Source: Naegleria gruberi (Eukaryota). From it: 64,000 nucleotides of DNA. The notes beneath the pieces were generated by a model. The model saw only the letters and a program-made list of their open reading frames with translations. It did no database searches and was not told the DNA's origin. Location: the NCBI GenBank assembly GCA_000004985.1, contig GG738857.1; one strand, written 5' to 3'. The position numbers and the translations under genes are program-made. Position 1 is the stretch's first letter. The number at the start of each line of letters is the position of its first letter. Positions 9,208 to 55,128 of the stretch are shown piece after piece.

Positions 9208-10107
9208 TATATATTGAGGTTGCAGTTTGTATTTTCTCTCTCTTAAAACTCTCAAGATGATCACAAAATCACTCGGAATTTGATGTTACACAAAAAGGGG
9301 AAGACTGTACAGTAGGGGTTGTTGGTCAGGACCTTGTCTCAAAGCCTTGTTGTTGTATTTTTTTCTTGTGTTGTTTTTAGTCTTCTTCATGCTTGAGAAA
9401 AAGCCTATGGAAGTTTTCTACTCGTTTTTGTTGGATGCACATTTTCGGTACTTGAAAAGGTTTATTGATAGACTTTTTAGAGCGATGAAAAAGTAGACTT
9501 CGCCAAAAAAGTAGGCCATCAGGATAGTTTCCAAAAAATCTTTGTAGATAGCATAGAGTTGTTGAGCCTGGAGGATGATCATGGCATGATGACAATAAAT
9601 ATCAACTTTTTAATGTTATTATTGATTGGATTTGAGTGCAGTATCTCGAAGAGTAAAAAGGCGAATAGTTAATTGAGGAAGAAACATAACTTTCATGAAA
9701 TTCCAAATGACAATTGCACTCGTTGTAATAAAGATGAAGATCTTTACAATCATGACCCAAAAAGTAGTTTAGAGAGCCAGTTTCGTCCAGTTCCATTTTT
9801 GATGAATTCCAATTTTTGTATAAAAGATAGTTTTGAGTTGCAATCTGTGTTTGTCAAGACTTTTTTCAAGTACATTTATTCAAATTAAAATCAAATAAGA
9901 ATGGATTTTTGATCTGATTATGGTGTTGATAATTTCTTAATAAATTTTAAAGGTCTTATTTAGTAGTTCGACTATTTTGCTCGATTATCTCAGATACAGA
10001 TATTGCAATACTGTAGAGCTTGTTCATTGTATAATTTTAAATTGAAGAAAAATCAGCTGTCTATTTGGTTTTTATATGGAGTGAAAACGAGTCAAATGAA
10101 AAGGTTA

Positions 10108-10984
10108 CTATTTAGAGCTGTCATGATTGTAAGGCACATCCAAACAAAAACCAGTATCAAATCCACTCGTTACCTTGTCCTTTCTGTATCCCAACTGATT
10201 ACTCACAATGAGTGTCTTCTTCTTCATAAATTTACAATTGAAATGTGTGTGACCGAATGCCCAGAGATTGATATTACGATTTCTATCAATTAAATAGAGT
10301 AAATCACTGGAAAAGGCAGTTTTTAAATTGCAATTCTTGAATCTTGGATCAGAGGTTTGTTTGGTGAGAGGAGCATGATGAGTCAAGACAATTATTGTTT
10401 CATTTCTGGATTTGGATTCAATGATTTCCTTTGTGAGCCATTCCACTTCTTCCAAATGCATTTTGGTCACGTCTGTGGTTTTCAATGGACGTTGCTGACC
10501 ATCTTCTTGGTCAATTATGGTAATATTCTTGTAGTCGTTAACATTTTGTGAAATTTCCTCAGAATGTTTCTCATCAATATTAGTCCACAATGTACATCCC
10601 AATATTCTCAATGATTGACCATTTTCTTCATCAATCAATAATGATGTTTTATCAAGAAATGTCACATTTTCATATTGAGAACAAATGGATTTAATTCTCT
10701 CCTTTGTAGACAATATTTCACTTATAATTGTTTTAAAAATTACAATTCCAATTTCATAATATTTACCTTCCATAAAATTCATGATTTCCAGCAATTACAA
10801 AAATCCTTCCAAATCCGTAAACATTCACACATTTTCCAATAAATTCTTCATATTTATCACTTGATGCCAGTGCAATATCTCCCAATAATGCCAACGTTTT
10901 ATCATGATTTCCTTCGGAGGAGAAAACAGGCTCCAAACAATTGGCCTTCTCCAAGTGAATATCTGAGGCAATGACTAATTTCAT
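10108..10984 (-). CDS. Calcineurin-like metallophosphoesterase. Two exons: 10984-10767 and 10720-10108.
   Basis: Exon 1 carries the IASDIHLE and GNHEFY motifs. A 46-nt intron (10766-10721, GTAAAT to tataag) joins two ORFs that sit in different frames. 46 mod 3 equals 1, which fits the 190-nt offset between them. The downstream exon has LWAFGHTHFN, the GHxH motif. Confidence 0.6.
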
Positions 10985-11705
10985 TTTTTTAAAGTTTGGA
11001 TTTTCAATTTTGAAATGAACATTTTACAATCAATGACGAATTTGATTTTTTTCAAATCTTTCAATTATGAAATGAATTGTTGTACTTTAATTAGAATTGG
11101 TTCTAACAAACGTATTGAATTAAAAGTGATGAAATGTGTTAAATTTTCACAAGCACTTCATGAATAATGTTAAAAATTCACTCAACCACAAAACTGTAAA
11201 TATATCATTGTTACTTATTCACAAGTCCACTAATCATATCAAATATTTTAAATATCAAAACAAGATCTTACCTGCCGATTAGAACCTTTACAATAAATTC
11301 TTCAAAAAGCTCTTCAAAATCCTTTTCAGAATGTCTTTCCCACTTTCATCCGTCTCGTCCTTTTTCTAATTTCCAATCCGGTAACTTTTACTCGTGTTGT
11401 CTCTTGTCCAACACCTTTTTGCTGTTACAATCTGTCAATTGTTATTTGATTTTATTGACAATAAACCAGTACCCACCACTTCCGATCTATCAATGTATAT
11501 TGTATTGTGTTCATTCAGTGATCCTCAACACAATCTTCATAGCAAAGCCTTTGATGAACACTTGCAAAAAACAACACAGAAAAAAAAAGGCTTGCTTGAG
11601 GTTACGCACCGATTTTTATCTTATTATTGCACCAGGGGAAGAACAGAGAGCAAGAAGTTAATAACACTTGAAAAGTATAATAACAAACATAATCGGAGAA
11701 GTAAA

Positions 11706-12931
11706 ATGGTCATTGATATTAGTCCTAGTTCATTCAAGAGAGTTGGTGTTGTTTATAATCCAATTTCAAGAGGAGGTAAGTAAAATAATTAGATGGTGAT
11801 AATTAATATATGCGATGATCAAATTATCAATTAATAATAGGTCAATCTGGAGCCTTGTTTAAGAATACAATTCATCCACTTCTTGACAAATATTTGAAGG
11901 AACGTATGGTAAAATGTAGAGCCACTGAAAGTATGGGTGATGGCAGTAGATGTGCTTTTGAATTGGTTGTTGAAGATAAATGTGATTTGATTATCACACT
12001 TGGTGGTGATGGTTCTACACAAAATACTCTCAACGGTTTAGTGAGAGGTTGTTTGTATTTGGATCCTCAAGCTTTGGCAAAGGGTGCACCACTCCCAGTT
12101 GGTTTGGCAGTTATTCCAACAGGATCTGGTAATGATTTGCAAAAGACAATCGGAGGTGAACCAGTTGACGTTTATTCAGAAGCATTCTTTGAAAGAACTG
12201 TCAAAACTATTGCAGAATCAGGCAAAGTTGTTTATGCAGATATTGGTAAAGTTGAATATACCAAAGATAATACTGGTATTATTTTGCCAGCATTGAATGA
12301 CGAACATATTCCAAAACAATATTTGAGCAATGACAGTTCTAAGAAACTTGCTTATCAATTTGATAGTGAAAATACTGGTGTTAGATTCTTTATGAATGAA
12401 AGTAGCTTTGGTATCAGTACTTCAGTTTTGAATGCTGTCAACAATAGTACCATCAGCAAGGAGATCAATTATAATGTTCAAACTTTGTGGAAACAACTTA
12501 CCTTTGTTAATCCATCGATTGACGTTGAAGTTGATGGAGAGACTGTTTATAGTGGCATTTCTCAATTGGTTTGTGTTGGTAACGGCAAGGCCTTTGGTAA
12601 TGGCATGTATCCAAATCCTAATGCAACAATTACAAGTGAAAACTTGTCCGTCTGTATTTTACATAACATTAGATTGTGGAATGTATTTTCAGTTGTCTAT
12701 TCTTTGAAGGCCGGAACAATTGGTTCATATGCATTGGCATCTCTTCTTGAAGGAAAGAAATCTTTGAAAGCAAAGAGAAGTGAATCCGAAACTCAAGATG
12801 TTTATTTGGAATGTGATGGTGAAGTTGTTGGTAAATTGCCAGCTCAATATGATGTTGTTCCAGCAATTATTAAAATGATTGTTCCAGAAAGCTCACCAGA
12901 ATATGAACTCCATAGCAAGAAGAATCTCTAA
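11706..12931 (+). CDS. Lipid kinase of the diacylglycerol-kinase catalytic-domain family (sphingosine/ceramide/acylglycerol kinase-like). Two exons: 11706-11775 and 11841-12931.
   Basis: ATG at 11706. The intron runs 11776-11840 (GTAAGT to aataatag), with a split Gly codon (g|gt). DAGK_cat signatures are LIITLGGDGSTQNTLNGL and VIPTGSGNDLQKTIG. Confidence 0.7.
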
Positions 12932-13105
12932 ATTAGCACCATAACCTAGAGTTGTACAATATTCAAGAGAATACCAATTTTGACATCCAATTTGCGAAAA
13001 ACATTAATGTATTATAAAAACAACAATCTTATTTATTCTAAAAAAGTACTTGTTATTGTTTACGAAGATAATAAATAGATCAAAATGTTGCTGTAAAGAA
13101 AGTAT

Positions 13106-14707
13106 TTATTTCAGTAACACCTTGTACTCATCAATCTCTCCTTCACATAATTCCTCTAATTTTTCCTTTCTTTCTTTGTGATCCTCAAATGCACCTTCCA
13201 TATCGTATTCACTGTATAGTCTCTTCTTGATAAATAATTTCAATTCATTTCTGTCATTTTGGGTAGTATTTACATTGTCATTGAGATGTTTCAGCCACAG
13301 GACTTCAAAACATTTTCTGAGTTGAGTATCAGAGAGTTTTGTGAGTGGCTTAGCTCTAGCTTTAAATTCTTCAAATGTTTCTCCTTCCTTTTCGTCTGCC
13401 TTTCTCTTAGCTGCTTTAAATATTGGACCACATACTTCTACATCAACCTTATTTCTCATTAATTGGAATTCATCACCAGGGTTTTCCACAGTAACTTCAT
13501 AGCATTCTCTTGGTTCGTAGGTCTTTTCTTCCACATTTTGAAGAGCATTATATCCAATCAAACTCTTTTGTTCCTTGTAACCCTTGATGGCATATGTATA
13601 AATTGCAAGGAGGAGTTTTCTTCCATGTCCTTGACGTTGGAATGGAGGCAATATTAAAAATTGACTCACTCTCAATCTTCTCTTATCTTTTAATACACCA
13701 TCTTCTTTCTTCAGGGTAAAGAATGGATATATTGATGAGAAACCAACAGGTATATATTCGAAATTATTTTCATGATCCTTAATTTTTTCATATCTGAAAG
13801 AAGAGTCAATTTAAATTATTCATGTTGAAAACTTACACTAAAAAGAATTCCCATAGATTATCTTGATCATCAATATATGAAGTTCCTTCAATAAAGAATA
13901 GACACAAGAATTGCCATGGTTTGTGAAGTGCTGCAATTTGTGACATTGTACATTTGTAAATTTCAAAAACTTTTCCATCTCTATAATAAACATCAATTTG
14001 TTCTCCTTTTGGTGTATTTGGTTGATTTATCTTGGATTTAAATTCAGATAAATTTTCAGTATATGGGAAGTAGAGAGGGACTGCACTAAATTCCGAGAAT
14101 TGAAATTCCAACTCCTTTGCAGCAAAGATTGATTTAACATCTGTTGCGTCATCACTTTATAAAATCAGTTAAGTTATCCACTTTCCAATAAAACCTACCT
14201 CTTAGTGTCATACTGAACGTTAAACCAACAGTATAATGATTTAGTAAAATAGAAATTAATTCGGAGGTTCTCATAACCATCTAATACATTGTTATTATCA
14301 TATAACAATCAAAACATACCAATTTTTTCCTCTTCTCCAAATAATTGATAGGTGAATTGTGGATGGAATTCCATCAATTTATGATGATGTTCTACATCAT
14401 TTGTATCAATGTATTGTTGTTCAATATCGGATTCGTTTCTGACAAGACGGAAGCGAATAACATCGTTGGCACTACACGTTAATTCATCATCACGGCTTAC
14501 ATCTGATGCTTCATCTTGTTCTTCAAAATCTTCAAGATCATCTTCATGGGATTCAGCACCCTCCATCTCAACCATCTTGTTTAACTTGTTAAACTTTTTG
14601 GTTTCTTGTGAAGTATTGTGAATACTGCTTCCGCTATCGGTGAGTTGTTCTTCGTTGGTTGCTGTGCCAGAAATTGAGAGCTTCTTCTTCTTTGCAAATG
14701 GTTCCAT
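13106..14707 (-). CDS. HAT1: Histone acetyltransferase type B catalytic subunit (HAT1). Four exons on the minus strand.
   Basis: Exon 1 (14707 to about 14320) encodes VIRFRLV...FHPQFTYQLFGEEEKI, matching the HAT1 N-terminal domain. The last exon (13793-13106) has SQFLILPPFQRQGHGRKLL, the acetyl-CoA-binding motif. Intron 13836-13794 (43 nt, GTAAGT to tttcag) links the middle exon (EFQFSEF...EFFLV) to the last exon, with gt|a forming Val. The exon 1 / exon 2 junction lies somewhere in 14140-14320 and I could not resolve it. Confidence 0.75.
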
Positions 14708-14730
14708 TTTTTTTTGGTTTTTCAACAATA

Positions 14731-14762
14731 TTTGGCGCTAAACGATTTCATTTGGCGGGAAG
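14731..14762. promoter_or_regulatory. Two E2F-like sites, TTTGGCGC and TTTGGCGGGAAG, just 5' of the HAT1 start codon
   Basis: TTTGGCGC lies at 14731-14738 and TTTGGCGGGAAG at 14751-14762. Both are 24-55 nt upstream of the minus-strand HAT1 ATG at 14707. The TTTSSCGC E2F consensus is well established and HAT1 is S-phase regulated in other eukaryotes. This is motif-level evidence only. Confidence 0.3.
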
Positions 14763-14854
14763 AAATTCCTAAAATTTGTGTAATAATCCATTTCAACAAA
14801 ATTAAACTGAATTTGTTAGCTAATTGATTCAATAAATAATGAAATCTTTTATCT

Positions 14855-15570
14855 TTATCTTCTGAATCTTAAATTTGGCATGACAGCTGGCTTTAAATGT
14901 TGATAATGTTGAGAGCTAGTTCTTCCTTCTCTAATTCTTCTCATATGATCATTAGATCTTACTGGACTGCGTCTTGGAAATCTAATTGGTTCTCTACCAC
15001 CAATAGTAATTGGTTCAAGCACTCCACCAATTGGTTGAACAGATGGACTCCTTTTTATAGGATACTTTGGTTGGACCAAATTCTTTCTAATTTTCTTCAT
15101 AAAAGCGTCTGATCTCTTTGGTGACATGAATCCTCTTTGGCCAGCTCTTGGACTATTCTTTCTATTATATTCTTCTCTAATTCTCTTCATGAAGGAATCA
15201 GATCTCTTTGGGGACATGAATCCACGTCCTCTCTTAATAACTTTTGGATATCTTTCTCCAATTTCTCTTCCTGACCACTTTTTGGAATCGTTTGGCTTTT
15301 TGGTCAAAATATTTAGAATTTGATTTCTTCTTTTAATCTATGTTGAATATATTTCAGAATAAATTGTTATACTGTGAGATGAATAGTCCAAATTGATGAT
15401 CAACTTACCATTCCATTTCTTTCTCTCAATTGACTAACAATCTTTCCATCAAGGAAGAAGCCAAGACTTTCCCATCCTTGTTTTTCAAAACTGTCATCAG
15501 TTTGTTGTGCAAGAACGACAACATTCAACAAGGCGAAAAGGACAACCACAACTGCCACAGCAATCTTCAT
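14855..15570 (-). CDS. Secreted, highly basic repeat-containing protein that looks like a peptide precursor. Two exons: 15570-15409 and 15337-14855.
   Basis: Exon 1 is MKIAVAVVVVLFALLNVVVLAQQ..., a classic signal peptide; the ATG is at 15570, or possibly 15630. The intron runs 15408-15338 (71 nt, GTAAGT to caacatag). Exon 2 carries a duplicated unit, RGFMSPKRSD(S/A)FMK(R/K)IR, flanked by KR, RR and GR basic pairs. The theoretical pI is very high. The same nucleotide duplication is visible at 15065-15125 versus 15179-15240. Confidence 0.5.
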
Positions 15571-16662
15571 CTTGTTAATTTTTTTGCAATGGTGGTTACA
15601 ACCTTGCCATATCAAGATTGCTTCCTTCATTTCAACCTAATTGGAGTATTCGATTATAATGACTGTTCTTTGAGTGAAGAAATGGATATGATCTTTACAA
15701 TTTACAATTGCAAATAAATGGGTGATTTGGATGGACAAATTGTTTGGAAAAATGTCTTGCCCATCTGCTCATAGATTCAGTTTCAGTTTTTGTCAAGTGA
15801 ATTTAAGGGAGTGCCTTAGTGAACATCACCTGATACGTTCGCCTAACCTTCCCAATTCAATAGTGGAAGCATAAACTCTCTTCAATGGTTATTATCATTA
15901 TGCTCTTTTTTTGAAAACCCAATTATTTCAAAATGAAACAGTTCATCACTCTGATAAATGAAAACAAGGCGTTCGTTCTGTTGATTCAAGATGTTTTATT
16001 CAACACCAGATTCGTTTCTTAGAAGTGAATAGCATTGTTTGGAAGAAGCCAAAACCATCATCTGAAAAATTACAAATGAATCCCTAATCTCTATTCAAAA
16101 TCTCCATCTAGATTATTGTATCCATCACGTTTACAATTCACTACGGAAGCTCAAATCTTATTAATAACAACATCACCAAGAACCGAACAAATCTTTTATC
16201 TGACCGTTCCTTAACAATTTACAGTTCTTTTTTTTAGTATTTTGGGTTTGTCTCGCCATTTATTACAGCTGCTAAAACCTCAACTTCCGCAAGAAGCTAG
16301 GCCTTTGATTGGTCTCACCAAAGCAAAAATGCCCTTAAAAAAAAAGACACCCATTTCTTGTTACTTGGCTGCCCTTTTGCGCGTTTTTTTTGCAACTCAT
16401 CACCCTCTTGAGCCAGTGACTTTGTATTAATATATATTGGCGGAGAAGAATATAGCAATAATAATTTGATTCGGACTTTGTGTTCTTGTGTGATAGTAGT
16501 AGTATTTGTATTTTTTGATTGTAGTAGAATAGTCTCTCATTATCATTTTGACAAGTTTAAAGTGGACGTTATTTCATCATCAGCATCAGCATCAATAGAA
16601 AAGGTTTCGAACCTGTATAACTGTCATCTTGAATAATTATTTAATTACTGTATAATATAGAA

Positions 16663-18011
16663 ATGTTTTATGCCGCCGGAGCTAATGAACATGGTAGGTT
16701 ATTAGTAATAATTAAATAGTAAATTGATGGAATATCAAATTAATTTATAGGTCAATTGGGGAATGGTACTTACTCGAACGTTATGGATCTCTCTCCCATC
16801 AACATATCAGCTCATCACTATAGACAAAAAACCTATCGTCAGCTAGGTCCCAAATGTCTTGCTGATTTTGCATCACTCGATGAACGTTCATTGATTGGTC
16901 TTTGTAAAATTAAACAAATTGCTTGTGGTAAACGTCATACCATGATACTAACTGGTAAGTTATTGTATCACAGCATGTTCAAGCTAATTAAACTATTTAA
17001 ATAGAGGAAAATGATTTGTATGCTTGCGGAGATAATTCCAACTCTCAACTTGGAGTCTATGAAACAATATCCAATAATACTGTTGAATGGATAGATTTTG
17101 AACCCGCTAGGACGTCAAGAATTACCTCAATTGCTTGCAGCTCTAATTCTTCCTTTATATTTTTGGAAAATGGTGAAATGTACAAAACAAGTCCTAACAA
17201 AATCTCTAATTTATCCCACAAAAATTCATTTTTCAAACTTACCATCGATAGCAAGAGCCAAGTGAAGAATTTCTTTAGCTCACCAACAACGAGTAGATTC
17301 CACATACTAACCAATGATAATTCTGTATTTGTAGGAGGGGAAGATGAGCAAGGTTTTTGGTTGTCAAGACAAGACCAAGCTCTGAAACCGACATCATTCC
17401 CTATCATCACCAACCCAATTAAAATAATTTCAAGTGGAGGTTTCCATACAGTCATTATTACCGAGAAGAATGAATATTTCAGTTTGGGAGGAAATTATTT
17501 CTATCAACGAGGTGACACAGATGATAGAGCTGCCATTAGAGAAGGTACTAATTTACCATTCTCTGGAAAGGCTATTAGTCAAGTTTGTTGTGGACATTTC
17601 CACACACTAGTGTTGTGTGCAGATGGAAGCTTGTATGCTTGTGGTAAAAACAGTCATGGACAACTTGGAAGCCCAACCCTCAATGAAAAGAATCTCTACA
17701 TGAAAGTACCAATTAATGCCTATATACACTCAATGCTTTGTGGAACAGACCATACCGTATTATTATCAACTGATAAGAGAGTTATGAGATGTGGAAAAAA
17801 TGACAGAGGGCAAATCTTTATAGATTTCAAAAAGCAAAACTCATCATTTGAAATGCTGAAAGTCAAGGAGTTTGCCCATTTGGCTTGTGGTGCTCATTTT
17901 ACAATATGTTATGGAGACATGACCTATGTTATTAATCGTTTCCCAAAGATTGCTTCATTTCTGAAGAGAACAGAACTATCTGATGTGAGGATTAAGTGTT
18001 ATGACGATTAA
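16663..18011 (+). CDS. RCC1-repeat (regulator of chromosome condensation-like) protein. Three exons: 16663-16693, 16751-16954 and 17005-18011.
   Basis: Exon 1 is MFYAAGANEH plus g. Intron 16694-16750 (GTAGGT to tttatag) gives ...HGQLGNGTYS. Intron 16955-17004 (GTAAGT to aaatag) gives ...ILTG-E-NDLYACGDNSNSQLG. The GxNxxGQLG and CGxxHT motifs recur at least six times. Confidence 0.7.
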
Positions 18012-27640: not shown

Positions 27641-29146
27641 ATGATGGGAAATGTGATTTTGGAGTTGGATAGAAATATTTCATCGGAATTTCTAAAGGAT
27701 CAATTTTCAAGGACTTGCAAATTGAATTATTTAAAAACTATAATATTTCAACTTGTTGTGATTAGAGATAAGAAGTGCCTCCCTCTTGTTCAATTATTTA
27801 GTCATGATCGAGGATTTATTGAAAAGATGGTCGAATATCAGGCATTTGCTCTTGGCTATGCTTCAAAAGAAATTAAAAAAGACAAATCGATAGCAGTTAA
27901 GGCATTGAAAACAAGTGGACACTCAATATCTTGTGTCGATGAGTCGTTATATTCCGATCGAGAAATAGCTCTTATTGCACTATCAAGTCATTCCTATGCC
28001 ATTCGTTTCTTTATGGAACACTTTTCTAATGATAAGGAGATAATCATGAATGCAGTTTCGAAATGTGGTAACTTAATTCATTATGCTACATATTGTGATT
28101 TGGATATTATATTGGCTGCTGTGACAACGTACGAGCTTGCATTTGAGCTTGCCGACCCAAAATATTATTTTGATAGAGAAATAATGATGGTAGCGGTTAC
28201 AAGGAATGGAATAACTCTTAGATATGCAAGTGAAACATTACGAGAGGATAGAGAAATAGTTCTGAAAGCTGTGAAAAATGCTGGAGATGCTTTGAGATAT
28301 GCCTTAGTACAAGATAGAGAAATTGCCTTAGAGGCAGTAAAATCTTCTGGTACAGCGCTTCAGTTTGTTGACAAGAATTTCCTTAGCGACTCAGAAATAG
28401 TCATGATAGCTCTTCATTCAAATGGTTCTTCTTTACAGTATCTACCTAAAGAAATGAGAGAAATAAGGGAATATGTTGAAGCTGCAATTTCTGAAAATCC
28501 TCTGTCAATTCAATATGCTAGTGAGGTGTATAAATCAGATAGAGAGCTAGTTAAAAAGGCTATATCCGAAAAGGGAAATATTTTAGGATATGTTGACAAG
28601 AAATTTCTGAAAGATGAGCAAATTGTTTTTTTGGCTGCTTTAAACAATCCTATAACCTTCAAATACGCAGATGAAAGTTTACGGTCTAATCTGAATTTCA
28701 TATTGGACATTATAAGGACTTCAAAGAAAACAAATGTATTAATGAGCTATTTGCCGGCCCCTGGTAGCATTAACATTTATAATGATAGAGAGTTCTATTC
28801 AAAGATTCCTATCGATACACATTTTATTAAGGAGAAAATTAGACTTTGTGGATTCAAGGCTACATTTGAAGAGTTTAGTTACAGTAAGGAAATAATTACA
28901 GAGATGGTCAAAGATTACATGACACTTGCTTTTATTAATGAAGGACTTCAACAAGATAGAGAAATGCTTCGAACTGCTCTTAATCTTAATGGTGAGCTGA
29001 TTAGTGAAATGCCTTTCATTATTGACAACTTGGATATTGAACTGATTCAAGTATCATTAATTTCCCTTCTTTCTGGCAGCGATGATAAAGAAAAGGAAAT
29101 TATCCATCAAACTCTACAATTAATCCAACATTCACAACAACTTTAA
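27641..29146 (+). CDS. DUF4116-type repeat protein
   Basis: ATG at 27641. At least eight copies of an approximately 37-aa repeat occur, for example DREIVLKAVKNAGDALRYALVQDREIALEAVKSSGTALQFV. These match the DUF4116 repeat pattern (REIxLxAVxxNGxALxYA). Confidence 0.6.
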   Translation: MMGNVILELDRNISSEFLKDQFSRTCKLNYLKTIIFQLVVIRDKKCLPLVQLFSHDRGFIEKMVEYQAFALGYASKEIKKDKSIAVKALKTSGHSISCVDESLYSDREIALIALSSHSYAIRFFMEHFSNDKEIIMNAVSKCGNLIHYATYCDLDIILAAVTTYELAFELADPKYYFDREIMMVAVTRNGITLRYASETLREDREIVLKAVKNAGDALRYALVQDREIALEAVKSSGTALQFVDKNFLSDSEIVMIALHSNGSSLQYLPKEMREIREYVEAAISENPLSIQYASEVYKSDRELVKKAISEKGNILGYVDKKFLKDEQIVFLAALNNPITFKYADESLRSNLNFILDIIRTSKKTNVLMSYLPAPGSINIYNDREFYSKIPIDTHFIKEKIRLCGFKATFEEFSYSKEIITEMVKDYMTLAFINEGLQQDREMLRTALNLNGELISEMPFIIDNLDIELIQVSLISLLSGSDDKEKEIIHQTLQLIQHSQQL

Positions 29147-38145: not shown

Positions 38146-41100
38146 TTATCTCTTTGTTAACTTTTTTGGTGGATCAATACTCTTATCAGATTCCTTTCTC
38201 TTTCTGTTGGCAGTATTAGTCGATGGAGATGATGAAGAACTTGCAGCCCTGTTTTGATTGGTATGTTTTGGAGCTGTTGAAGAGCTTGAACTTGCTTGTC
38301 CACTTTTAACAGATTGAACATTCTTTTCAATATTAGAAATTGATGAACTTGTTGCTTTCTTTCTATTTGATGTAGGATTTGATGTAGGGGTGTTTTCAAT
38401 AATTTCTTTTACCTTCTTTTCTTTTTTCACTGGTAACTTATTCAACTCTAACTTTACAATAGGTGATGAGGATGAAGAACTTGATGCTTGTTGTTTCTTA
38501 TTTCCCTTAACTTGTGGTGATTTTTGAGTAGGAGATTTAACCTTCTTATCTGTCAATTTTTTATGTGGAAATTGTCTATTTGCATTCTTTCTTAAACCTC
38601 CACTATATTTGAAAGCATAGATTTGGAATCCACCAATACCATATAATAACATTTGTCTGATAAAGTATTCATCTGAGGAATTGTTTCCTTCCTTGAATGA
38701 TTCATGATCTTTCTTAACAACATCCTTTGATGAAATACCATCGAATAGAACCATATCTGAGACTGGATGAATTCCAATCATATTAGGACCATAGAATGTA
38801 CTGATATTACCTCTTGCAGATGAAACAAAATGAGTTGTTTTTTGTAATTTGTCAACTTCATTACTAAGGAATTTTGATTGAGCAGTTCTAACATTCCACA
38901 ATGAGACATGACCTACATGATTTCTCTTATCAAACTTTTCATTATATAGCTTCTTATACTTTGAAAGAATTTGTTTACCTTCCTTTGTTAGATGTGCCTT
39001 GGTCTCCTCAAGAATAGTCCACAATTCTCTTGGATCTTCAATGCACTTTTTTCTGAATTCTTCAAAGGTTTTAAACATTCTCAATCGATCACTATCACCT
39101 ATTTTACCACAAGTATAATGTGATCTTATCAATGGATTTTCTTCCGTGACATAGGTTAGAAATTCCTTAATTACTTCTTCTTTTTGTTGATAATCATAAC
39201 TTGAATGTAATTCAAAGTAAATGATGGCCTCTGCAAATATGAGATATCTTGCCAATGCGTTATTGTGTCGAACAAAAATAGGTTTCTTATACTCTTCAGC
39301 ATGAATGAAATTATCTTCCATGACATGATAAATTTCCAATTCGAAATGTTCTGCCAATAACATACAAAGTTTCTTCTTCTTTCCAATATTGATAAATATT
39401 TCAGTATCAATACTGACAAATACATAGTTAGGTGCCTTTTCTACCTCATTCATGGCTTCATTTAGGAATGAACGAGCCTTTTCCAAAAATGCATTTTCAA
39501 CCATGATGAAAATTAAATAATCTTGACTTCCATTTTTGGAATGTTTAATACAACAATCATGAACATGTCTCTCTAAAAAGTTTGGAGATGTTTCTTCAAA
39601 ATATTCTGGAAGAGTTGTAATGAAAATTGGAGCAATTCGTTGTCGACTATGACTCTTATTACCACCCATAGTTCCAATTAAGGCATCAGTGGAGAGCAAG
39701 GATTTAAATTTTGCCAGTTTAGTTTCCTTCAATTCCTTTTCATAGGAAACAAGAACTTGTTTTTCATTTCTATCAATTTCCATGAGGACCAGTTGACCTT
39801 TTTGATATAATTTCTTTTGTTCTTCAGATAAACCTGCATCAATACTTTCCTTTTCAACTCTTGTCAAACTAATGCTACTTTTTGGTAATTTTTGAACATT
39901 ACCAAATTTTTCACTGGGTGAAAGAACTTTTGCTCTTTTAAGCTCTCTAATGGTGTTATATTCCTTATCAGGAATAATCATACAACCCTTTCCTGATTTA
40001 CATGCAGGTGATGGATAACGATTTGAAAGACCTAAATGTTCGGCTTTAAGAGGTTTAGTTTTTTCCTTTTTCAAAAGCACTCTCATATCATCAATTAACT
40101 TGAATTTCTCAATTGCTAATTTGAGATATTCTTCAGATTCTAATTGACCTCTAATATGTAAGAGTTCATCTGCACAATTACTCAAATACTCTTTCATTGA
40201 ATTCAAAATTGAGTAAAATATATCAAAACTTCCATAATCTTCAATGCGTTCATTTGGTGAAACAAAATTCATAGAGTGGAAAATATCATCAACAATTTCA
40301 ACTAATTCTCCCTTAAAAGTATTCATTTCTTCTTCCTTAGTTGCTAAATCCTTCTTTTGTTTTGCCATTAATGAATCAATCTTCTTTTCAATAAATTCAA
40401 ACATTTGATTCTTGTACATGTCAATTCTATATCTAATTTTTCTGTTTCTTTCATAGAAATAAGTTGTAAACTCAATCCAATTATCATATTCAATTAATTG
40501 ACTTTGAATATTACAATCTAAGGTTTCGTGAGGTGAAAATGTTTCAATGGGTTCTTCACTCTGTCTCTGTTCAATATTTCTACATTTCTTTTCAGTTCTT
40601 TTAATACTTTTCATCAATGTCTTGACACATGTTGATAATTCAAAGTAAGTTTCCTTGAGAATGGTTTTAATTGCTGCTCTTGCATCTACTGCTGCCTTGA
40701 TTGGAAATTGAGATTTGTAAAGAGTTGCAATTTGTAAAGCATATCTCAATCCCTGAAAAACTAAAAAATTAGTTTCAATAGTCTTTCTCATTTCAATTAT
40801 TTCACCAAGTTGTTTGAAGAATATATTCCATCTCTCCTTATCTGTTTTATGTGGGATTGTTAAATTAGTGGCTCGATTAGCTACTGCAACAACAAAATCA
40901 TACTTTCCAAAGAAATCAACATCCTTCCTCTTGGACTCTTCAATCTTTCCAAGTTGTGAAATATTTTCATTCAAGATCAACATCGAAGAAATCACTCAAA
41001 TTACTCTTAAAATCTGTTAAATATTTTTCATGAAGTTCTGTCAATTCTTTGTATGGATTCTTCTCTTTAGCTATTGTCTGACATAGTGATGTCAAAACAA

Positions 41101-42136
41101 TGGTTGGTGGATTATCAGTATTCTTTTCAAATACCTTGTAGGTCCATAAATCAGGGACACAATCAACACCAACAATTTGTCTTACACTTTCTAAACCCTT
41201 AAGAATGACATTACAATTAGAAATAACCTCTTCAATTAACATGGAAAGAATTTCACTATTATTCTGTTCACCATAACCAGGAATGTCCCATATTGCCACT
41301 TTACCATATCTACTTTTCAAGATTTCACTATTATAACAGAGAACAAATTTGTCAACCATCAAGAGTCTTTCCTTTGATTGAAGTCTTTCCTTCTCAAAGA
41401 CTGACATTACAGCTTTGTCATCTGAAACTTGAAATTCAATTTGTAAATCTCCTTCTTGTTCAAATTTTAAAAGTTCAGCATAACATGTCTTGAGTTCACT
41501 TTGATCGAGACCACAATTAGAAACTGGATTGGATTCTGCTTTTCTAGGTAGAATACATTCTTCTTGTTCATCATTGTAATCATCATCATCTGAACTTTCT
41601 TCATTAGAACCCAATGATGGACTCTCATCAGCAGCAACATCTTGATAATCATCAAGCAATTGATCTTCATTACGATCACTAGAGAGTAAATCAGCAATTA
41701 TCGTATTATCTTCATTCTTCTTTGAGAGACGAATAATTCTATCTACGTACTTCTTAGGTGAGCAATAAACCTTTAATAGACGTAATTTATCAGAATATTT
41801 AATCTCAGTACAAAACAAAGTTTCACCTGAACCAAATTTAGAAGATGCCTTCATTGGATAATCATCTTTTCCAGATAGTATCATATTCAATGTGCTTGTT
41901 TTACCAAATCCAGGTTCTGATAATAAACCTATTGAAATTTCAGGTCCTTTTTCAATCTTTTCATAAATCTTTTCATAATTGTCAAAGGCTTCTTTCACAA
42001 ACTTGTTAGACTGATTCTGCTTTGAAGAAGTTCCAAAATCCTTGACAATTTTATCAAGAAATTGTCTCTTGATTCTCTCTTCTTTAACAACATTGACGTG
42101 GTTAATCTTTGAGTCAGCAGGTGTTTGAGGAATCAT
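38146..42136 (-). CDS. Large P-loop (TRAFAC-class-like) GTPase with an acidic insert and a roughly 570-aa conserved C-terminal domain of unknown function. This is paralogue A.
   Basis: ATG at 42136. The N-terminal ORF (42136-40970) has the Walker A motif LLSEPGFGKTSTLNMILSG and the G3-like WDIPGYGEQN. The long C-terminal ORF (to 38146) is collinear with paralogue B (FFGKYDFVV..., SHSRQRIAPIFIT, NFLERHVHDCC, NIGKKKKLCML, HVGHVSLWN, GIGGFQIYAF). The two ORFs are out of frame by +1 at about 40960-41000. This implies either a 37-nt intron (gttgat...ggaaag) or a frameshift. Confidence 0.6.
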
Positions 42137-42347
42137 TTTTTTCTTTTTTCAATATTAACAAGCGTTGAGTTTTATGTGAGGTGATGGCAAAGGTTAAGAA
42201 GTGTTGGAGAAGTGAGAAATGACGTGTGGTGCATTTATCATGGTAAATTTGAAATTCAAAATTTAGAAGAGAAATTTGAATCCATGAAGCTTAACAAACA
42301 CGACGAGGTGTAACATTTTAAAAACTCGAATGACATGATGTAAAAAA
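42137..42347. promoter_or_regulatory. A 211-bp divergent intergenic region between the start codons of paralogues A and B, likely a shared bidirectional promoter
   Basis: The ATG of the minus-strand gene is at 42136 and that of the plus-strand gene at 42348. The spacer is AT-rich. No specific motif was identified. Confidence 0.3.
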
Positions 42348-45300
42348 ATGTCAACATCGCTATTGCCAAGTGCCTCCTTTGACCTATTCGATTCTGAATT
42401 ACATAATGTAATTGATGAAGAAAGGGATCGGAAACATATTTTGCAGCAATGTCTACATAAATTAAATGAAAATAATTATGTGACGAAAGCTTTTGCAAAA
42501 TATTCGAATATATTCGAAACTATTGACAAAGGACCTGAAGTTTCTGTTTGTTTATTATCAGAACCTGGATTTGGTAAAACAAGCACATTGAATATGATAC
42601 TATCTGGAAATGACAATTCTCCAATGAAGGCATCCGATAGATTAGGTTCAGGTGAAACTTTAGTCTGTACACAAATTAAATATTCGAAAGACATTCGAGT
42701 TACAAAAGTTTATTGTACAGCTGAAAAGTATGAAGAAAGAATTATGAAATTAATGAAAACAAAAGATTCAGAAGATGAACAAACATCACCAACGCCACTC
42801 ACAGATGGTTTAAGTTTAGTTTCGTCTTCAAGTTTCGAATTTCAAGACGATGATGATGATGAAGAAACTGATTGCGAAGATTCAGCATCAGATGAAGCAA
42901 ATTCACTTTTACTTCCAGAGAAATTAAATGTAGAAACTTCAAGTGTAAGATTAAGTGAAGATCATTTCGTATTTCTTAATGGAAAGGCAGATAGAAATGA
43001 ATTAGAAGAAACATTTACGTTTCAATCTGTTCATGATATTCATAACTATTTTGAAAAGGAAAGAAAAAGAGATGAATGCAATAGAGATGACATTTTAATG
43101 GTTGACAAATATATTTTATACTATCCGTGTGAATTACTTAAAAGTGAATATGGAGAAGTGATATTATGGGATATTCCTGGTTATGGTGAACAAAATTATG
43201 GTGATATTCAAGCTATGCTTGTTGAAGAAGTTGTTTCTAATTGTAATGTCATCTTAATGGCATTGACAGGTAACAGAAATATCCTATCTTTAAATTGTTC
43301 ATCTAATTTATGGAAATATAAGGCATTTGAAAAAAGAAAAGATAATCCACCTACTATTGTCTTAACTTCAAGATGTCCAATAGAAAATTCAAATCATTAT
43401 TCAGAATTAATCAAATGTCATAATTCCTATATTAGGGAATTTAAAGAAAATTTAAGTGATTTTTTCAATGTTGATTTTGAATCTAATCCAAAACCTAAAA
43501 AGAAAGAATTGAAAGAAGAAAATGAAGACGAACCTAAAATAATTGACTTTTTTGGAAAGTATGATTTTGTTGTAACAGTTTCAAATTATGCAACAAATAT
43601 TACAATACCACATTTAACGGATAAAAATAATTGGACTATATTTAAGGATGAATTTTCAAAAATAATTGAAATGAGAAAGAGAATTGAAACTGATTATTCA
43701 ATTTTTAAGGGATTGAGATATGCTTTACAAATTGTAACACTTTACAGAACTCAATTTCCTGTCAATTTTCAAAAATTATGTAAAACAGAGACAGATAAAA
43801 TTGCAGATGAAACTTTAAAAACTTTACTACAATATATTGAAACTTTGGAATCAAATATTCAAAGAGCAATTTCAAGAGGTGAAAAATTAGAGAAGAAAAT
43901 TGAAAATTCTTTCAGTTTTGGAAATGAAAATTCATTGACTGATAAAATTCAGAGAAGATTATTCGAATCACATACAAGAGATGTCATGATTGCTTACTAT
44001 AGTGAAAGAATGAAAAAAATCAGTACAAGAATTGAAATGTTCAGAATTCAATTACATTTTCTATTGGAAACTAAAATTTTAGCAGCACAAAGTCATGAAA
44101 AATGTTTTGATTTTACAAATTTTAAAAACATGTTGTCAGATCATATTGATGAGATATTCGATTCTTTAAAAGCAATTATTCCAAACGAAATGACAGATGA
44201 TTCTAGAATGAAACTTGATTCGTATCATGAATCTTTTAAATCAATGAAAGGAATTTCAGAACAATCTAAAATTTTATTGAAAACTTTAACTAAATCAGGA
44301 TTCAAAAAAATAACCAAAACAGATGATAAGGAACTTTCATTATATGAAAAAGCAGAGAGAGTGAAAAGAGATTTTAAAAAGAAGAACTTCAAGTCCTATG
44401 AAGATGAAATCAAAATTCCAAGTCTTTCTAATGCCTATATGAATCCTTCTCGTAGAACAGGTAATATTCTAATTCCACTAAAAGAATACGAAACTATTAA
44501 GGAATTGAAAGAAAATTTCATTTTACCATCAGTAGGTGAGAAATTTGAAGAAAATATTGGAAAAATAGAAAAACAATCAAAAAGTGAATTGGAATTGGTA
44601 TATCGTTCAGATGAAATTAGTGGAAATATCATTTCCTTACAAATCGACAAATCACAGAGAAGAATTACAGTTTCGTATAATGAAAGTTTGCAAAAATCAA
44701 TTCAAAGTTTTAAAAAACTATTGACCACTGATTCACTCATTGGAACTAAGGGTGGAAACAAGAGTCATAGCCGACAACGAATTGCTCCAATTTTCATTAC
44801 TGCAGTTCCAGAATATTTCAATGATTTCACTCCAAACTTTTTAGAGAGACATGTTCATGATTGTTGTGTTAAATCAGATGTCAATCATATCATTTTCATT
44901 ATGATTGAGTCAATTTATTTGGAAAAAGCTCAATCATTCCTTAATCAGAATTTAAGTTTGTTGAATAATGAATATTCAAAGAAAAAATTGAATTATGTAT
45001 TTATCAGTATTGATACTGAACTTCCTGTAAATATTGGAAAGAAGAAGAAACTTTGCATGTTGGTGGCAGAACATTTCGAATTGGAAATTTATCATGTCAT
45101 GGAAGATAACATACTTCACGTTGAGGAATATATCAAACCAATCTTTTTCAGACATAACAATGCATTGGCAAGATATCTCATCTATGCAGAGGCCATTCTC
45201 TATTTTGAACTTTATTCAAGCATGGATTACACTCAGAAAAAAGGAATTATTAAGGAATTGCATGATTTTTTCTTGGATGAACCTTTAACGAGACGATACT

Positions 45301-45953
45301 ATTTGGAAAACAAGATTTCAGATTCAGATCCACTCAGGAAATTTAACACAGATGAGAAGATTAGAGAGAAGTATATTCACGATCCGAGACAATTATTATT
45401 TGCTTTTAATTATTTGAAACCTAAACTAAATGAAGATGGATTACAAATCGTTCACCAATATGAGGTGAAATTTAATGAATTCTTTAATAGGAGAGATCAT
45501 GTAGGTCATATTTCATTGTGGAATACTCAAAGTTCTCAATCAAAATCACTGAGCTCATTTATTGACAGCACTCAAAAAACAACTCATTTTGTTTCACCTA
45601 TGAGAGGAAATATCAGTACATTTTATGGACCGAATACGAAAGGAATTCATCCAGTTTCGGATAATGTTCTATTTGATGGGATGGCAGAAACATCACCATC
45701 TCCATTGACTCCTACATCAAAAAGAAGAACTAAGTTCGATATGTTGGAATCTTTTTTATGTGGAAATAGTTTCTCTGATGATTACTTTATTAGGCAAATG
45801 TTATTGCATGGAATTGGTGGATTTCAAATTTATGCTTTTAGATATCTTGCTGGAAACAGAGCTAGAATTAAGGATCGCAAAAAGAATTCGAAACGAAAGG
45901 ATATGGAATCGATCAAAAATGTTTCCCAACAGAAAAAGAAGAAGAATAAATGA
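42348..45953 (+). CDS. Large P-loop (TRAFAC-class-like) GTPase with an acidic insert and a roughly 570-aa conserved C-terminal domain of unknown function. This is paralogue B.
   Basis: Continuous 1201-aa ORF with ATG at 42348. The Walker A motif is LLSEPGFGKTSTLNMILSG, with WDIPGYGEQN about 200 aa downstream across an Asp/Glu-rich insert. The C-terminal domain shares long identical blocks with paralogue A. Off-frame ORFs 45034..45288 and 39171..39425 are almost identical, which indicates patches of high nucleotide identity. Confidence 0.7.
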   Translation: MSTSLLPSASFDLFDSELHNVIDEERDRKHILQQCLHKLNENNYVTKAFAKYSNIFETIDKGPEVSVCLLSEPGFGKTSTLNMILSGNDNSPMKASDRLGSGETLVCTQIKYSKDIRVTKVYCTAEKYEERIMKLMKTKDSEDEQTSPTPLTDGLSLVSSSSFEFQDDDDDEETDCEDSASDEANSLLLPEKLNVETSSVRLSEDHFVFLNGKADRNELEETFTFQSVHDIHNYFEKERKRDECNRDDILMVDKYILYYPCELLKSEYGEVILWDIPGYGEQNYGDIQAMLVEEVVSNCNVILMALTGNRNILSLNCSSNLWKYKAFEKRKDNPPTIVLTSRCPIENSNHYSELIKCHNSYIREFKENLSDFFNVDFESNPKPKKKELKEENEDEPKIIDFFGKYDFVVTVSNYATNITIPHLTDKNNWTIFKDEFSKIIEMRKRIETDYSIFKGLRYALQIVTLYRTQFPVNFQKLCKTETDKIADETLKTLLQYIETLESNIQRAISRGEKLEKKIENSFSFGNENSLTDKIQRRLFESHTRDVMIAYYSERMKKISTRIEMFRIQLHFLLETKILAAQSHEKCFDFTNFKNMLSDHIDEIFDSLKAIIPNEMTDDSRMKLDSYHESFKSMKGISEQSKILLKTLTKSGFKKITKTDDKELSLYEKAERVKRDFKKKNFKSYEDEIKIPSLSNAYMNPSRRTGNILIPLKEYETIKELKENFILPSVGEKFEENIGKIEKQSKSELELVYRSDEISGNIISLQIDKSQRRITVSYNESLQKSIQSFKKLLTTDSLIGTKGGNKSHSRQRIAPIFITAVPEYFNDFTPNFLERHVHDCCVKSDVNHIIFIMIESIYLEKAQSFLNQNLSLLNNEYSKKKLNYVFISIDTELPVNIGKKKKLCMLVAEHFELEIYHVMEDNILHVEEYIKPIFFRHNNALARYLIYAEAILYFELYSSMDYTQKKGIIKELHDFFLDEPLTRRYYLENKISDSDPLRKFNTDEKIREKYIHDPRQLLFAFNYLKPKLNEDGLQIVHQYEVKFNEFFNRRDHVGHISLWNTQSSQSKSLSSFIDSTQKTTHFVSPMRGNISTFYGPNTKGIHPVSDNVLFDGMAETSPSPLTPTSKRRTKFDMLESFLCGNSFSDDYFIRQMLLHGIGGFQIYAFRYLAGNRARIKDRKKNSKRKDMESIKNVSQQKKKKNK

Positions 45954-53856: not shown

Positions 53857-54840
53857 ATGAAAAGTAAAAGGCAACAAGAATATTCTCTGAAGGGAATTCG
53901 AATAATTGTAGTTTTGATGATGGTGATGATAGGTTTCTTCGGAATAATATCTTGTAAGGATGATTTTCGGGAAACAAGTAATGAATTGGCTTTGGAGTTC
54001 TTTCCTCTTGATAAATTGATTATGAAGAGTATTGTATTGGATGAATACAATAATGAACTTGTTTATAATATGGTCAATTTGACGAATAATGATTCCATGA
54101 CAAATGGAACAGATAGTAACAATTCGAGTGGGATTGAAGATAATCTTTTTTGGGTTATTGTCAAGTCAATTTATTTCAATGCATTTGGAAGTGGAGTGTT
54201 TGCTGGTTTGGTGACAATTGCTATCACTGTCATTATTGAAAAGTTTGGACCTCAGGTTGGAGGTGTTATTGGTACGTTGTAAACCAATTAGTTCAATTTT
54301 TTTAAATCAACTTTTAAATCAATAATAGGCACCTTACCAAGTACAATTATTCCAGCAACAATTGGGTTCTCAATTGAGGCAGATAAGAATTACGGAACAG
54401 ATCCAGAATTGAGGAAACACATGCTCATCCAGCAATTCTTTGTGATACCTTTGGCTGTTTTCTGCAATTGTCTCTTTTTGGTTATTTGGAAATATTCGCC
54501 ACACATTATTGATAGGATTAAACTTTTAATTGATAGGAAGAGAGGGAAGAGCAAGCAAATCAATATTGTTGCTTCTCATGAGGCAAGCGTTCAAGAAATG
54601 AATGAGATTCCATTTGAAGAAAACCATGATATACACGATGCAGATGAGGGACATCATCGTCCTTCTGTTGAGCTCCTCACTGCTGCACAAGGCACTGATG
54701 AACATAGTACCACTGAGCTCCAAACAGAAAGCCAACCAAGCAGAAAGTACCTTGTTGGAAAAATGTTTATTGTAATGACATTGTCATTGGTGGTATGGTT
54801 TACATTGGCTATTGTGATTGTGACAGTTACTAAGGTCGAA
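53857..54840 (+). CDS. Polytopic membrane protein (two exons: 53857-54271 and 54329 to at least 54840), truncated at the 3' end by an assembly gap
   Basis: ATG at 53857. Intron 54272-54328 (57 nt, GTACGT to ataatag) joins ...GPQVGGVIG to GTLPSTIIPATIGFSIEADK..., so ORF-track entries 53857..54282 and 54409.. belong to the same gene. The protein has multiple hydrophobic helices and runs into the N gap at 54842. Confidence 0.45.
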
Positions 54841-54841
54841 A

Positions 54842-55128
54842 NNNNNNNNNNNNNNNNNNNNNNNNNNNNNNNNNNNNNNNNNNNNNNNNNNNNNNNNNNN
54901 NNNNNNNNNNNNNNNNNNNNNNNNNNNNNNNNNNNNNNNNNNNNNNNNNNNNNNNNNNNNNNNNNNNNNNNNNNNNNNNNNNNNNNNNNNNNNNNNNNNN
55001 NNNNNNNNNNNNNNNNNNNNNNNNNNNNNNNNNNNNNNNNNNNNNNNNNNNNNNNNNNNNNNNNNNNNNNNNNNNNNNNNNNNNNNNNNNNNNNNNNNNN
55101 NNNNNNNNNNNNNNNNNNNNNNNNNNNN
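54842..55128. other. Assembly gap (287 N)
   Basis: Run of n characters. It separates the membrane-protein gene from the PPR gene. The ORF-track entry 54409..58980 (1523 aa with X residues) is an artefact of reading through this gap. Confidence 0.95.

Follow-up and report, generated by a model that had tools for sequence, protein, structure and literature searches.

The 64,000-nucleotide stretch analysed here (the window) is nuclear DNA of the free-living, bacterivorous heterolobosean Naegleria gruberi, from contig GG738857.1 of NCBI GenBank assembly GCA_000004985.1; it is AT-rich, with a GC content of about 34%. Our subject is a two-exon orphan gene on its minus strand, at 14855-15570, whose product combines a hydrophobic, signal-like N-terminus with a long basic chain in which one short motif occurs three times. 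An earlier note, made from the letters of the window, had proposed it as a secreted precursor of the prohormone or antimicrobial-peptide kind. The gene lies between the gene for HAT1 and a divergently transcribed RCC1-like gene, and its features, with the evidence for each in brackets, are as follows.

14855-15570, minus strand: two-exon gene with a 214-aa product (splice model and database identity)
15409..15570, minus strand: exon 1, 54 codons, phase 0, with the ATG at 15570, the signal sequence and the pro-region (codon log-odds, identity to the NCBI model)
15508..15570, minus strand: predicted signal peptide MKIAVAVVVVLFALLNVVVLA, aa 1-21, cleavage expected after VLA, or alternatively an uncleaved type II anchor (translation, hydropathy)
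15409..15507, minus strand: mildly acidic pro-region QQTDDSFEKQGWESLGFFLDGKIVSQLRERNGM, aa 22-54, net charge -2 (translation, codon score 0.588)
15338..15408, minus strand: intron, 71 nt, GTAAGT...ACATAG, GC 26.8% (canonical splice sites, codon score -0.57)
14855..15337, minus strand: exon 2, 160 codons plus TAA, a Cys-free basic chain of net charge +33 and isoelectric point (pI) 11.86 (translation, codon scores)
15176..15226, minus strand: motif copy 1, RGFMSPKRSDSFMKRIR, aa 92-108 (predicted helix 97-115; predicted local distance difference test, pLDDT, block mean 69 for residues 101-110)
15086..15136, minus strand: motif copy 2, RGFMSPKRSDAFMKKIR, aa 122-138 (predicted helix 127-142; pLDDT block mean 65 for residues 131-140)
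14930..14968, minus strand: motif copy 3, diverged, SPVRSNDHMRRIR, aa 178-190 (BLOSUM62 score 44; predicted helix 182-190)
15628..15630, minus strand: alternative in-frame upstream ATG, which would prepend MKEAILIWQGCNHHCKKINK (open reading frame, ORF, 15400-15630)

This is a protein-coding gene of two exons, and its spliced product is 100% identical to the Naegleria gruberi entry XP_002679598.1 / EFC46854.1 / D2V8S5 / NAEGRDRAFT_65262, which public annotation calls a "predicted protein" and nothing more. The model that the earlier note had assembled by hand equals the public one, and the protist gene that it supposed is real. Both splice sites are canonical and the junction between the exons is in frame; the frame of exon 1 meets an in-frame TGA three codons past the intron donor, and that of exon 2 is closed on its 5' side by the acceptor's own TAG, immediately before the exon. 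The intron is ordinary, since the adjacent HAT1 gene (13100-14710, minus strand) has three introns of 39-47 nt, with GTATGT, GTAGGT and GTAAGT donors and AG acceptors. Codon usage was scored as log-odds in bits/codon, trained on 19 long ORFs from the same 64-kb window. Exon 1 reaches 0.534, where 54-codon windows average 0.355 in frame and do not exceed 0.394 out of frame, and its non-signal part, the pro-region, reaches 0.588; exon 2 scores 0.541 upstream of its first ATG (aa 55-93; off-frame maximum 0.435) and 0.481 over the rest, and the intron scores -0.57. Across 54- to 33-codon windows the off-frame maxima run from 0.39 to 0.58. The earlier note had allowed that exon 1 might be part of another gene; with the in-frame junction, the canonical splice sites and scores of 0.53 and 0.54 bits/codon, above every off-frame window of the same size, it belongs to this one.

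The start of translation can be narrowed further. Exon 2 holds no ATG before Met94, and since the part preceding it is coding and the residues R-G-F are kept between motif copies through the synonymous codons CGT and AGA, an upstream exon is required; exon 1 is the sole in-frame, well-scoring and canonically spliced partner near exon 2. The ATG at 15570 is favoured over the one at 15630 because the 20 codons that the latter would add score 0.11 bits/codon. Near that upstream ATG lies a 4-codon, out-of-frame mini-ORF (15608-15630, minus strand; ATG GCA AGG TTG TAA), and the two would influence the choice of start if they lay inside the 5' untranslated region. The orphan ORF was also tried as a 5' exon of HAT1 and rejected, since 145 nt separate its TAA stop from the HAT1 ATG downstream, and the 488-aa HAT1 of N. 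fowleri aligns over 100% of the 491 aa of N. gruberi HAT1 with no such exon included. A search with the spliced 491-aa HAT1 found its best matches in N. fowleri (70%) and Willaertia (57%) and returned no N. gruberi entry; HAT1 may be missing from, or mis-modelled in, the public N. gruberi annotation.

The 16-mer GFMSPKRSD(S/A)FMK(R/K)IR that the earlier note had seen twice is indeed present at aa 92-108 and 122-138, where with its leading residue it forms the shared block RGFMSPKRSD(S/A)FMK(R/K)IR; of the statement that basic residues follow it, the part on copy 2 stands (KN...) and the part on copy 1, which runs on into EEY, does not. A third, diverged copy, SPVRSNDHMRRIR, had been overlooked; against copies 1 and 2 it scores 44 in BLOSUM62, a value never reached when the C-terminal part was shuffled 5000 times. 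Between copies 1 and 2, 11 of 54 nt differ, and the eight codons affected comprise five synonymous and three replacement differences (S/A, R/K, E/K), where the same number of random substitutions gives a mean of 7.6 residue changes (P=0.0007 for the three replacements observed). Read in either of the remaining frames, the pair shows 7 residue differences and contains stops, and a conserved Ser is encoded by AGT in copy 3 and by TCC in copy 1, a switch of Ser codon family. Because the excess of synonymous difference is confined to this frame, the motif peptide is under purifying selection.

In all the collections searched the gene is an orphan. A word-indexed search of 5.8 billion protein clusters returned the self-hit alone and a full HMMER scan of 1.84 billion representatives the query itself only, Pfam gave 0 matches at E<=10, and a PDB sequence search gave 0 at E<=1. 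The protein databases searched include the N. fowleri and Willaertia magna proteomes, from which the HAT1 orthologues were retrieved at 70% and 57% identity. Within the window, tblastn and a six-frame motif search found no paralogue, just the three copies inside the gene itself. Among Joint Genome Institute (JGI) metagenomes, a protein-guided scan found no relative, and the 8 matches to a degenerate GFMSPKRSD DNA pattern are all chance ones, in unrelated contexts or interrupted by stops. The thought in the earlier note that this could be a new, uncatalogued peptide gene fits these results, no catalogued relative having come from protein clusters, HMMER, Pfam, PDB or JGI metagenomes. As a sequence family it is new, but orphan, basic, secreted repeat proteins are a familiar kind, and the gene was already annotated, as uncharacterised. 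Elsewhere in the window, a 3.85-kb metagenome contig, k127_15641 (European Nucleotide Archive ERZ929261), is 98.6% identical to positions 10018-13863 and ends about 1 kb before the orphan, and a Logan contig from the same run, ERR1078381, has 99.7% identity over 1066 nt; these contigs indicate that the sample held an N. gruberi-like amoeba.

The gene order of the relatives bears on the history of this orphan. N. fowleri has the order RGS - RCC1-like - SET - GT15 - HAT1 - DAGK and W. magna the order RCC1-like gene - SET - HAT1 - DAGK, and in N. gruberi the series reads RGS/PAS - RCC1-like - 1.09-kb gene-free gap - orphan - HAT1 - DAGK. The conserved syntenic slot is thus without this gene in both relatives, whose syntenic loci gave no match to it by tblastn, and synteny is broken at this point. 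Since the flanks are syntenic and the orphan is missing from both loci, it is specific to the N. gruberi lineage and sits where the gene order has been locally rearranged. An origin from the SET or GT15 genes was considered and rejected, as neither tblastn nor blastn found a remnant of either in 14700-16700. The gene-free gap (15571-16662), which separates the ATG of the orphan from the divergently transcribed RCC1-like gene starting at 16663, is long for this compact genome; its codon scores are non-coding, and Rfam gave no match to a noncoding RNA in 13000-18000 at E<=0.1.

A gene with this history could be a spurious model, or a young lineage-specific gene of little or no function at a rearranged locus, with a repeat that is a recent internal duplication. 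In favour of this are its orphan status in all searches, its position at a synteny break where the relatives have a SET-domain gene, and a lack of expression evidence: its accessions are cited in no paper that we found, and the supplements to two omics papers on N. gruberi do not list it. We nonetheless consider this account doubtful, because codon usage in all segments beats that of the window's average gene, the duplication is old enough for the nucleotide differences counted above to have accumulated while the peptide was preserved, an older third copy retains the key residues, and there is no SET or GT15 remnant as a possible source.

The protein's N-terminus consists of MK followed by 19 apolar residues (aa 3-21; mean Kyte-Doolittle hydropathy 3.15), with V-L-A standing before QQ. 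The putative cleavage site has Val at -3 and Ala at -1; the apolar stretch is flanked by positive charge on its N-terminal side and by the acidic QQTDDSFE on its C-terminal side. A heuristic reading of these residues bears out the look of an endoplasmic reticulum (ER) signal, which the earlier note had called a clean signal peptide, though the segment may instead be an anchor. The positive-inside rule governs the membrane orientation of signal sequences and, taken with the acidic C-flank, would put the C-terminal chain in the ER lumen from either ATG. The chain would thus enter the secretory pathway by way of its hydrophobic N-terminus. The same residues could also belong to a type II signal-anchored or structural lumenal protein that shows its basic repeats on the surface, in a vesicle lumen or in the cyst wall, where they would bind acidic polymers. 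Typical signal-peptide h-regions are shorter than 19 residues, the stretch with its mean hydropathy of 3.15 is of membrane-spanning length, and the ATG at 15630, if used, would give an N-flank that is 20 residues longer and more positive. Against an anchor stand the good cleavage context of V-L-A | QQ after the apolar stretch, the score of the upstream extension (0.11 bits/codon), and the lack of any other membrane- or wall-protein feature (0 Pfam matches and a single N-x-S sequon in the protein), and we think it distinctly unlikely.

Downstream of the predicted cleavage site, the mature chain of 193 residues holds 29 Arg, 19 Lys and no Cys, and is thus 25% Lys plus Arg. The whole protein has a pI of 11.55 and the part encoded by exon 2 one of 11.86; the latter's length of 160 aa matches the Lys/Arg-rich chain of roughly 160 aa and pI above 11 that the earlier note described. 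With its net charge of -2, the pro-region (aa 22-54) falls far short of neutralising the net +33 of aa 55-214.

So basic a chain is bound to hold adjacent basic residues, and these had led the earlier note to a precursor cleaved by kexin/furin-like proteases. The KR and RR pairs that it saw throughout are literally there, but not in excess: 15 adjacent basic pairs compare with 11.7 +/- 2.6 in 20,000 composition shuffles (P=0.14) and, after removal of one motif copy, 12 with 9.8 (P=0.24). They sit within the conserved 17-mer (SPKR|SD, FMK[RK]|IR), conservation spanning them, and the borders of the unit are a single Arg and IR. When the protein is cut in silico at every dibasic pair, the unit is split into xGFMSP, SD(S/A)FM and IR..., and since copy 3 does not have the first internal dibasic site (SPVR-S), its products would differ from those of copies 1 and 2. 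A 2009 survey, the only one found to cover N. gruberi, lists Excavata (Trichomonas), Heterokonta and Opisthokonta as the groups with the P-domain of convertases, which implies that the Discicristata sampled, namely Leishmania major and N. gruberi, lack it (PMC2770060); we found no literature linking Naegleria to a kexin, furin or proprotein convertase of its own. With pairs that are unenriched and internal to the conserved block, and with a P-domain convertase by implication absent, the pattern is not that of a kexin/furin prohormone, and the case for that reading is weak. Processing by some other, non-kexin protease is possible.

A broader version of the same idea, a multi-peptide precursor in which a basic-residue endoprotease cuts at KR, RR, KK or single Arg and frees xGFMSP, SD(S/A)FM or the 16-mer as signals or antimicrobials, would suit several features of the protein. 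These include the signal-like N-terminus, the absence of Cys, the conserved repeat units and the neutral to acidic N-terminal stretch, as well as the KRGR that precedes copy 1 and the paired, near-identical fragments that full dibasic cutting yields, namely GRGFMSP(KR) with ...GFMSP(KR) and SDSFM(KR) with SDAFM(KK). Polyprotein antimicrobial precursors are moreover known in the genus, the naegleriapores, cited in PMC5850478, being an example. The dibasic evidence set out above nevertheless counts against such a precursor in each of its parts, from the frequency of the pairs and their place inside the block to the motif that copy 3 keeps without its first site and the convertase domain by implication missing, as does the presence of two or three copies only, and we judge it unlikely. 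A narrower proposal, in which a secreted peptide system evolved since the split from N. fowleri and a non-kexin, basic-directed protease releases xGFMSP, SD(S/A)FM or the 16-mer, is a long shot; if it were true, the repeated peptides would be cell-cell signals or antibacterials, and the system would parallel, by convergence and within one lineage, the polyprotein precursors of animals and fungi.

Each motif copy looks instead like a cationic helix capped by Ser-Pro. A single-sequence AlphaFold2 model, of low confidence overall (mean pLDDT 54), places helices at residues 3-23, the signal, and 27-66, in the pro-region and of low confidence, and three further helices (97-115, 127-142 and 182-190) coincide with the three motif copies, which, with pLDDT block means of 61-69, have the best local values within the basic region. 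The dipeptide S-P occurs 5 times where 1.3 are expected (P=0.005), and three of the five start a motif copy just ahead of the predicted helix. A Ser at the N-cap with a Pro at N1 is a well-known helix start, and the position of S-P ahead of the predicted helices fits it. Read from the sequence, the residues F, M, I and Y/L of the motif, at i, i+1, i+4 and i+8, would line up as a narrow apolar strip along a helix rich in Arg and Lys; in hydrophobic moment the motif windows are moderate, at 0.64-0.69, and other parts of the protein exceed them.

The S-P sites could also mark a protein that is nuclear or binds nucleic acid, of the SPKK/H1-tail type and with phosphorylation at S-P-x-K/R, in which exon 1 is bypassed or is not in the mature mRNA. 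The pattern [ST]-P-x-[KR] is enriched (3 occurrences where 0.4 are expected, P=0.007; leaving out one copy, 2 where 0.36 are expected, P=0.047), as is S-P itself; a chain that is 25% Lys plus Arg, of pI above 11, Cys-free and disordered resembles nuclear basic proteins, and the junction of the exons is without transcript support. This reading, however, must do without the exon that the coding evidence demands: aa 55-93 are coding-like (0.541 against an off-frame maximum of 0.435) and lack an ATG, R-G-F is kept by synonymous change so that translation must begin upstream of exon 2, the frame is shut by a TAG right at the acceptor, and the sole fitting partner, exon 1, encodes a hydrophobic signal from its supported start. 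Helix N-capping explains the S-P enrichment equally well, and a nuclear protein is in our view highly unlikely.

Taken together, these features suggest to us, at a probability of roughly one in three (0.35), a secretory polycation without Cys that uses three capped cationic helices to bind a polyanion in a defence, prey-handling or matrix role, the protein acting whole or trimmed. The hydrophobic N-terminus would send the chain into the ER and would probably be cleaved after Ala21, leaving a Cys-free, largely disordered polycation of net charge about +31, with the mildly acidic N-terminal stretch possibly a propiece. The functional elements would be the three capped helices, S-P-x-R-S-(D/N)-x-(F/H)-M-(K/R)-(R/K)-I-R, in each of which Ser-Pro may serve as the N-cap and F/M/I(/Y,L) as a narrow apolar stripe on an Arg/Lys-rich surface. 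Such helices may bind a polyanion electrostatically, outside the cell or in the lumen of a phagosome or vesicle, candidate targets being bacterial envelopes, nucleic acid, and cyst-wall or matrix polysaccharide, and the protein would then act as a defence, prey-handling or matrix-binding factor, either whole or after limited trimming.

ER entry and the helices we infer from the protein's sequence and the structure model, and several points weigh against this account. Nineteen apolar residues exceed what is usual in a cleaved signal and could anchor the protein in a membrane, the helices are a propensity only, since the model was made from a single sequence and has a mean pLDDT of 54, and their hydrophobic face is narrow (about 32-36% apolar by hand count), unlike that of classical membrane-lytic peptides. 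The target and the function we infer purely, and orphan genes without measurable function are common in protist genomes. The silence of the literature and of the two omics supplements noted above belongs here as well, as does the result of exact look-ups in independent contigs and transcripts, which gave no match for the 214-aa product; the same look-ups were blank for the ORFs of exon 2 (150 and 120 aa), for those of exon 1 (76 and 56 aa), and for the first-exon ORFs of the adjacent HAT1.

By analogy, the orphan would work most like secreted cationic repeat proteins and precursors such as the polyprotein antimicrobial precursors and silaffin-type polycations, and it is not filed in these families because it fails the kexin-precursor layout, has no saposin fold and has no neutralising propiece. 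With the Kex2/furin polyproteins (MFalpha1, the FMRFamide type and fungal Kex2-processed repeats), whose general precursor logic is summarised in PMC5850478, it has in common a signal, a pro-region, repeated units and many Lys/Arg pairs. In contrast to them, its dibasic pairs lie inside the unit and are unenriched, its copies number two to three with no alternation of spacer and peptide, a kexin-type convertase is undocumented in Naegleria, and there is no sequence similarity to any such precursor. Naegleriapores have saposin-like, Cys-rich, disulfide-bonded folds of about 80-100 aa, and against that six-Cys fold the orphan has no Cys, no saposin, Pfam or PDB match, and units of 13-17 aa. The likeness lies in the genus and in the strategy of a secretory precursor, the naegleriapores of N. 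fowleri (Herbst et al. 2004, cited in PMC5850478) being multipeptide secretory precursors with related antimicrobial units. Precursors of the magainin and apidaecin type share with the orphan a signal, a less basic propiece and Cys-free, cationic, helix-prone segments in several copies; the orphan differs in its narrow apolar face (F, M, I, Y/L), acidic residues within the helix, a moment of 0.64-0.69 and flanking processing sites that are undefined.

Outside these families, the layout of a signal, an acidic stretch and basic repeats recalls another protist secretory polycation, the silaffin precursor Sil1p of Cylindrotheca fusiformis. As Kroger and colleagues reportedly described it in 1999, Sil1p has a signal, an acidic stretch and basic Ser/Lys/Arg repeats cleaved at basic sites; its seven Ser/Lys-rich repeats are said to end in RRIL or RRNL, and the polycation to bind a phase that is polyanionic or mineral. 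The comparison goes no further than analogy: there is no sequence similarity, and Naegleria makes no silica. The SPKK motif, reportedly described by Suzuki in 1989 in the basic tails of histone H1 and sperm H2B, has its likeness in the S-P-K-R and S-P-V-R enriched in the orphan's Lys/Arg-rich, disordered chain. Unlike those nuclear proteins, which have no hydrophobic signal, the orphan has a signal-like N-terminus, its S-P heads a helix motif, and it has no histone-fold or H1 domain.

Other parts of the window hold repeat-rich genes of different kinds. A 1523-aa ORF at 54409-58980 (plus strand) encodes a PPR protein that carries E and E+ motifs and has a DYW deaminase domain at its C-terminus, the architecture of plant-type RNA-editing factors, which has already been described for N. 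gruberi. Inside it, a 309-nt tandem array (55375-57734; 7.6 copies, 67% matches) points to recent internal amplification of blocks of about three PPRs. Two proteins, at 27641-29146 and 59930-61474 (both plus strand), consist almost wholly of DUF4116 repeats, which match 8 stretches of the first (E 9e-89) and 10 of the second (E 2e-68), and represent an expanded repeat family. The most AT-rich part of the window, with 29-31% GC against about 34% elsewhere, is 38146-45953, which carries three long ORFs (949, 389 and 1201 aa); a Pfam scan of the 949-aa and 1201-aa ORFs gave no match.

In summary, the gene as it stands is one among many uncharacterised orphan models of N. gruberi, and the idea of a hormone precursor is without specific support. 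Its locus is a clean case of gene gain, with both flanks syntenic in N. fowleri and Willaertia and a SET-domain gene in the slot there, and its internally triplicated motif, under purifying selection, marks a functional element. Naegleriapores are, to our knowledge, the only characterised secreted defence molecules in heteroloboseans. If expressed and secreted, the protein described here would be a taxonomically restricted secreted effector in a free-living, bacterivorous member of that group.

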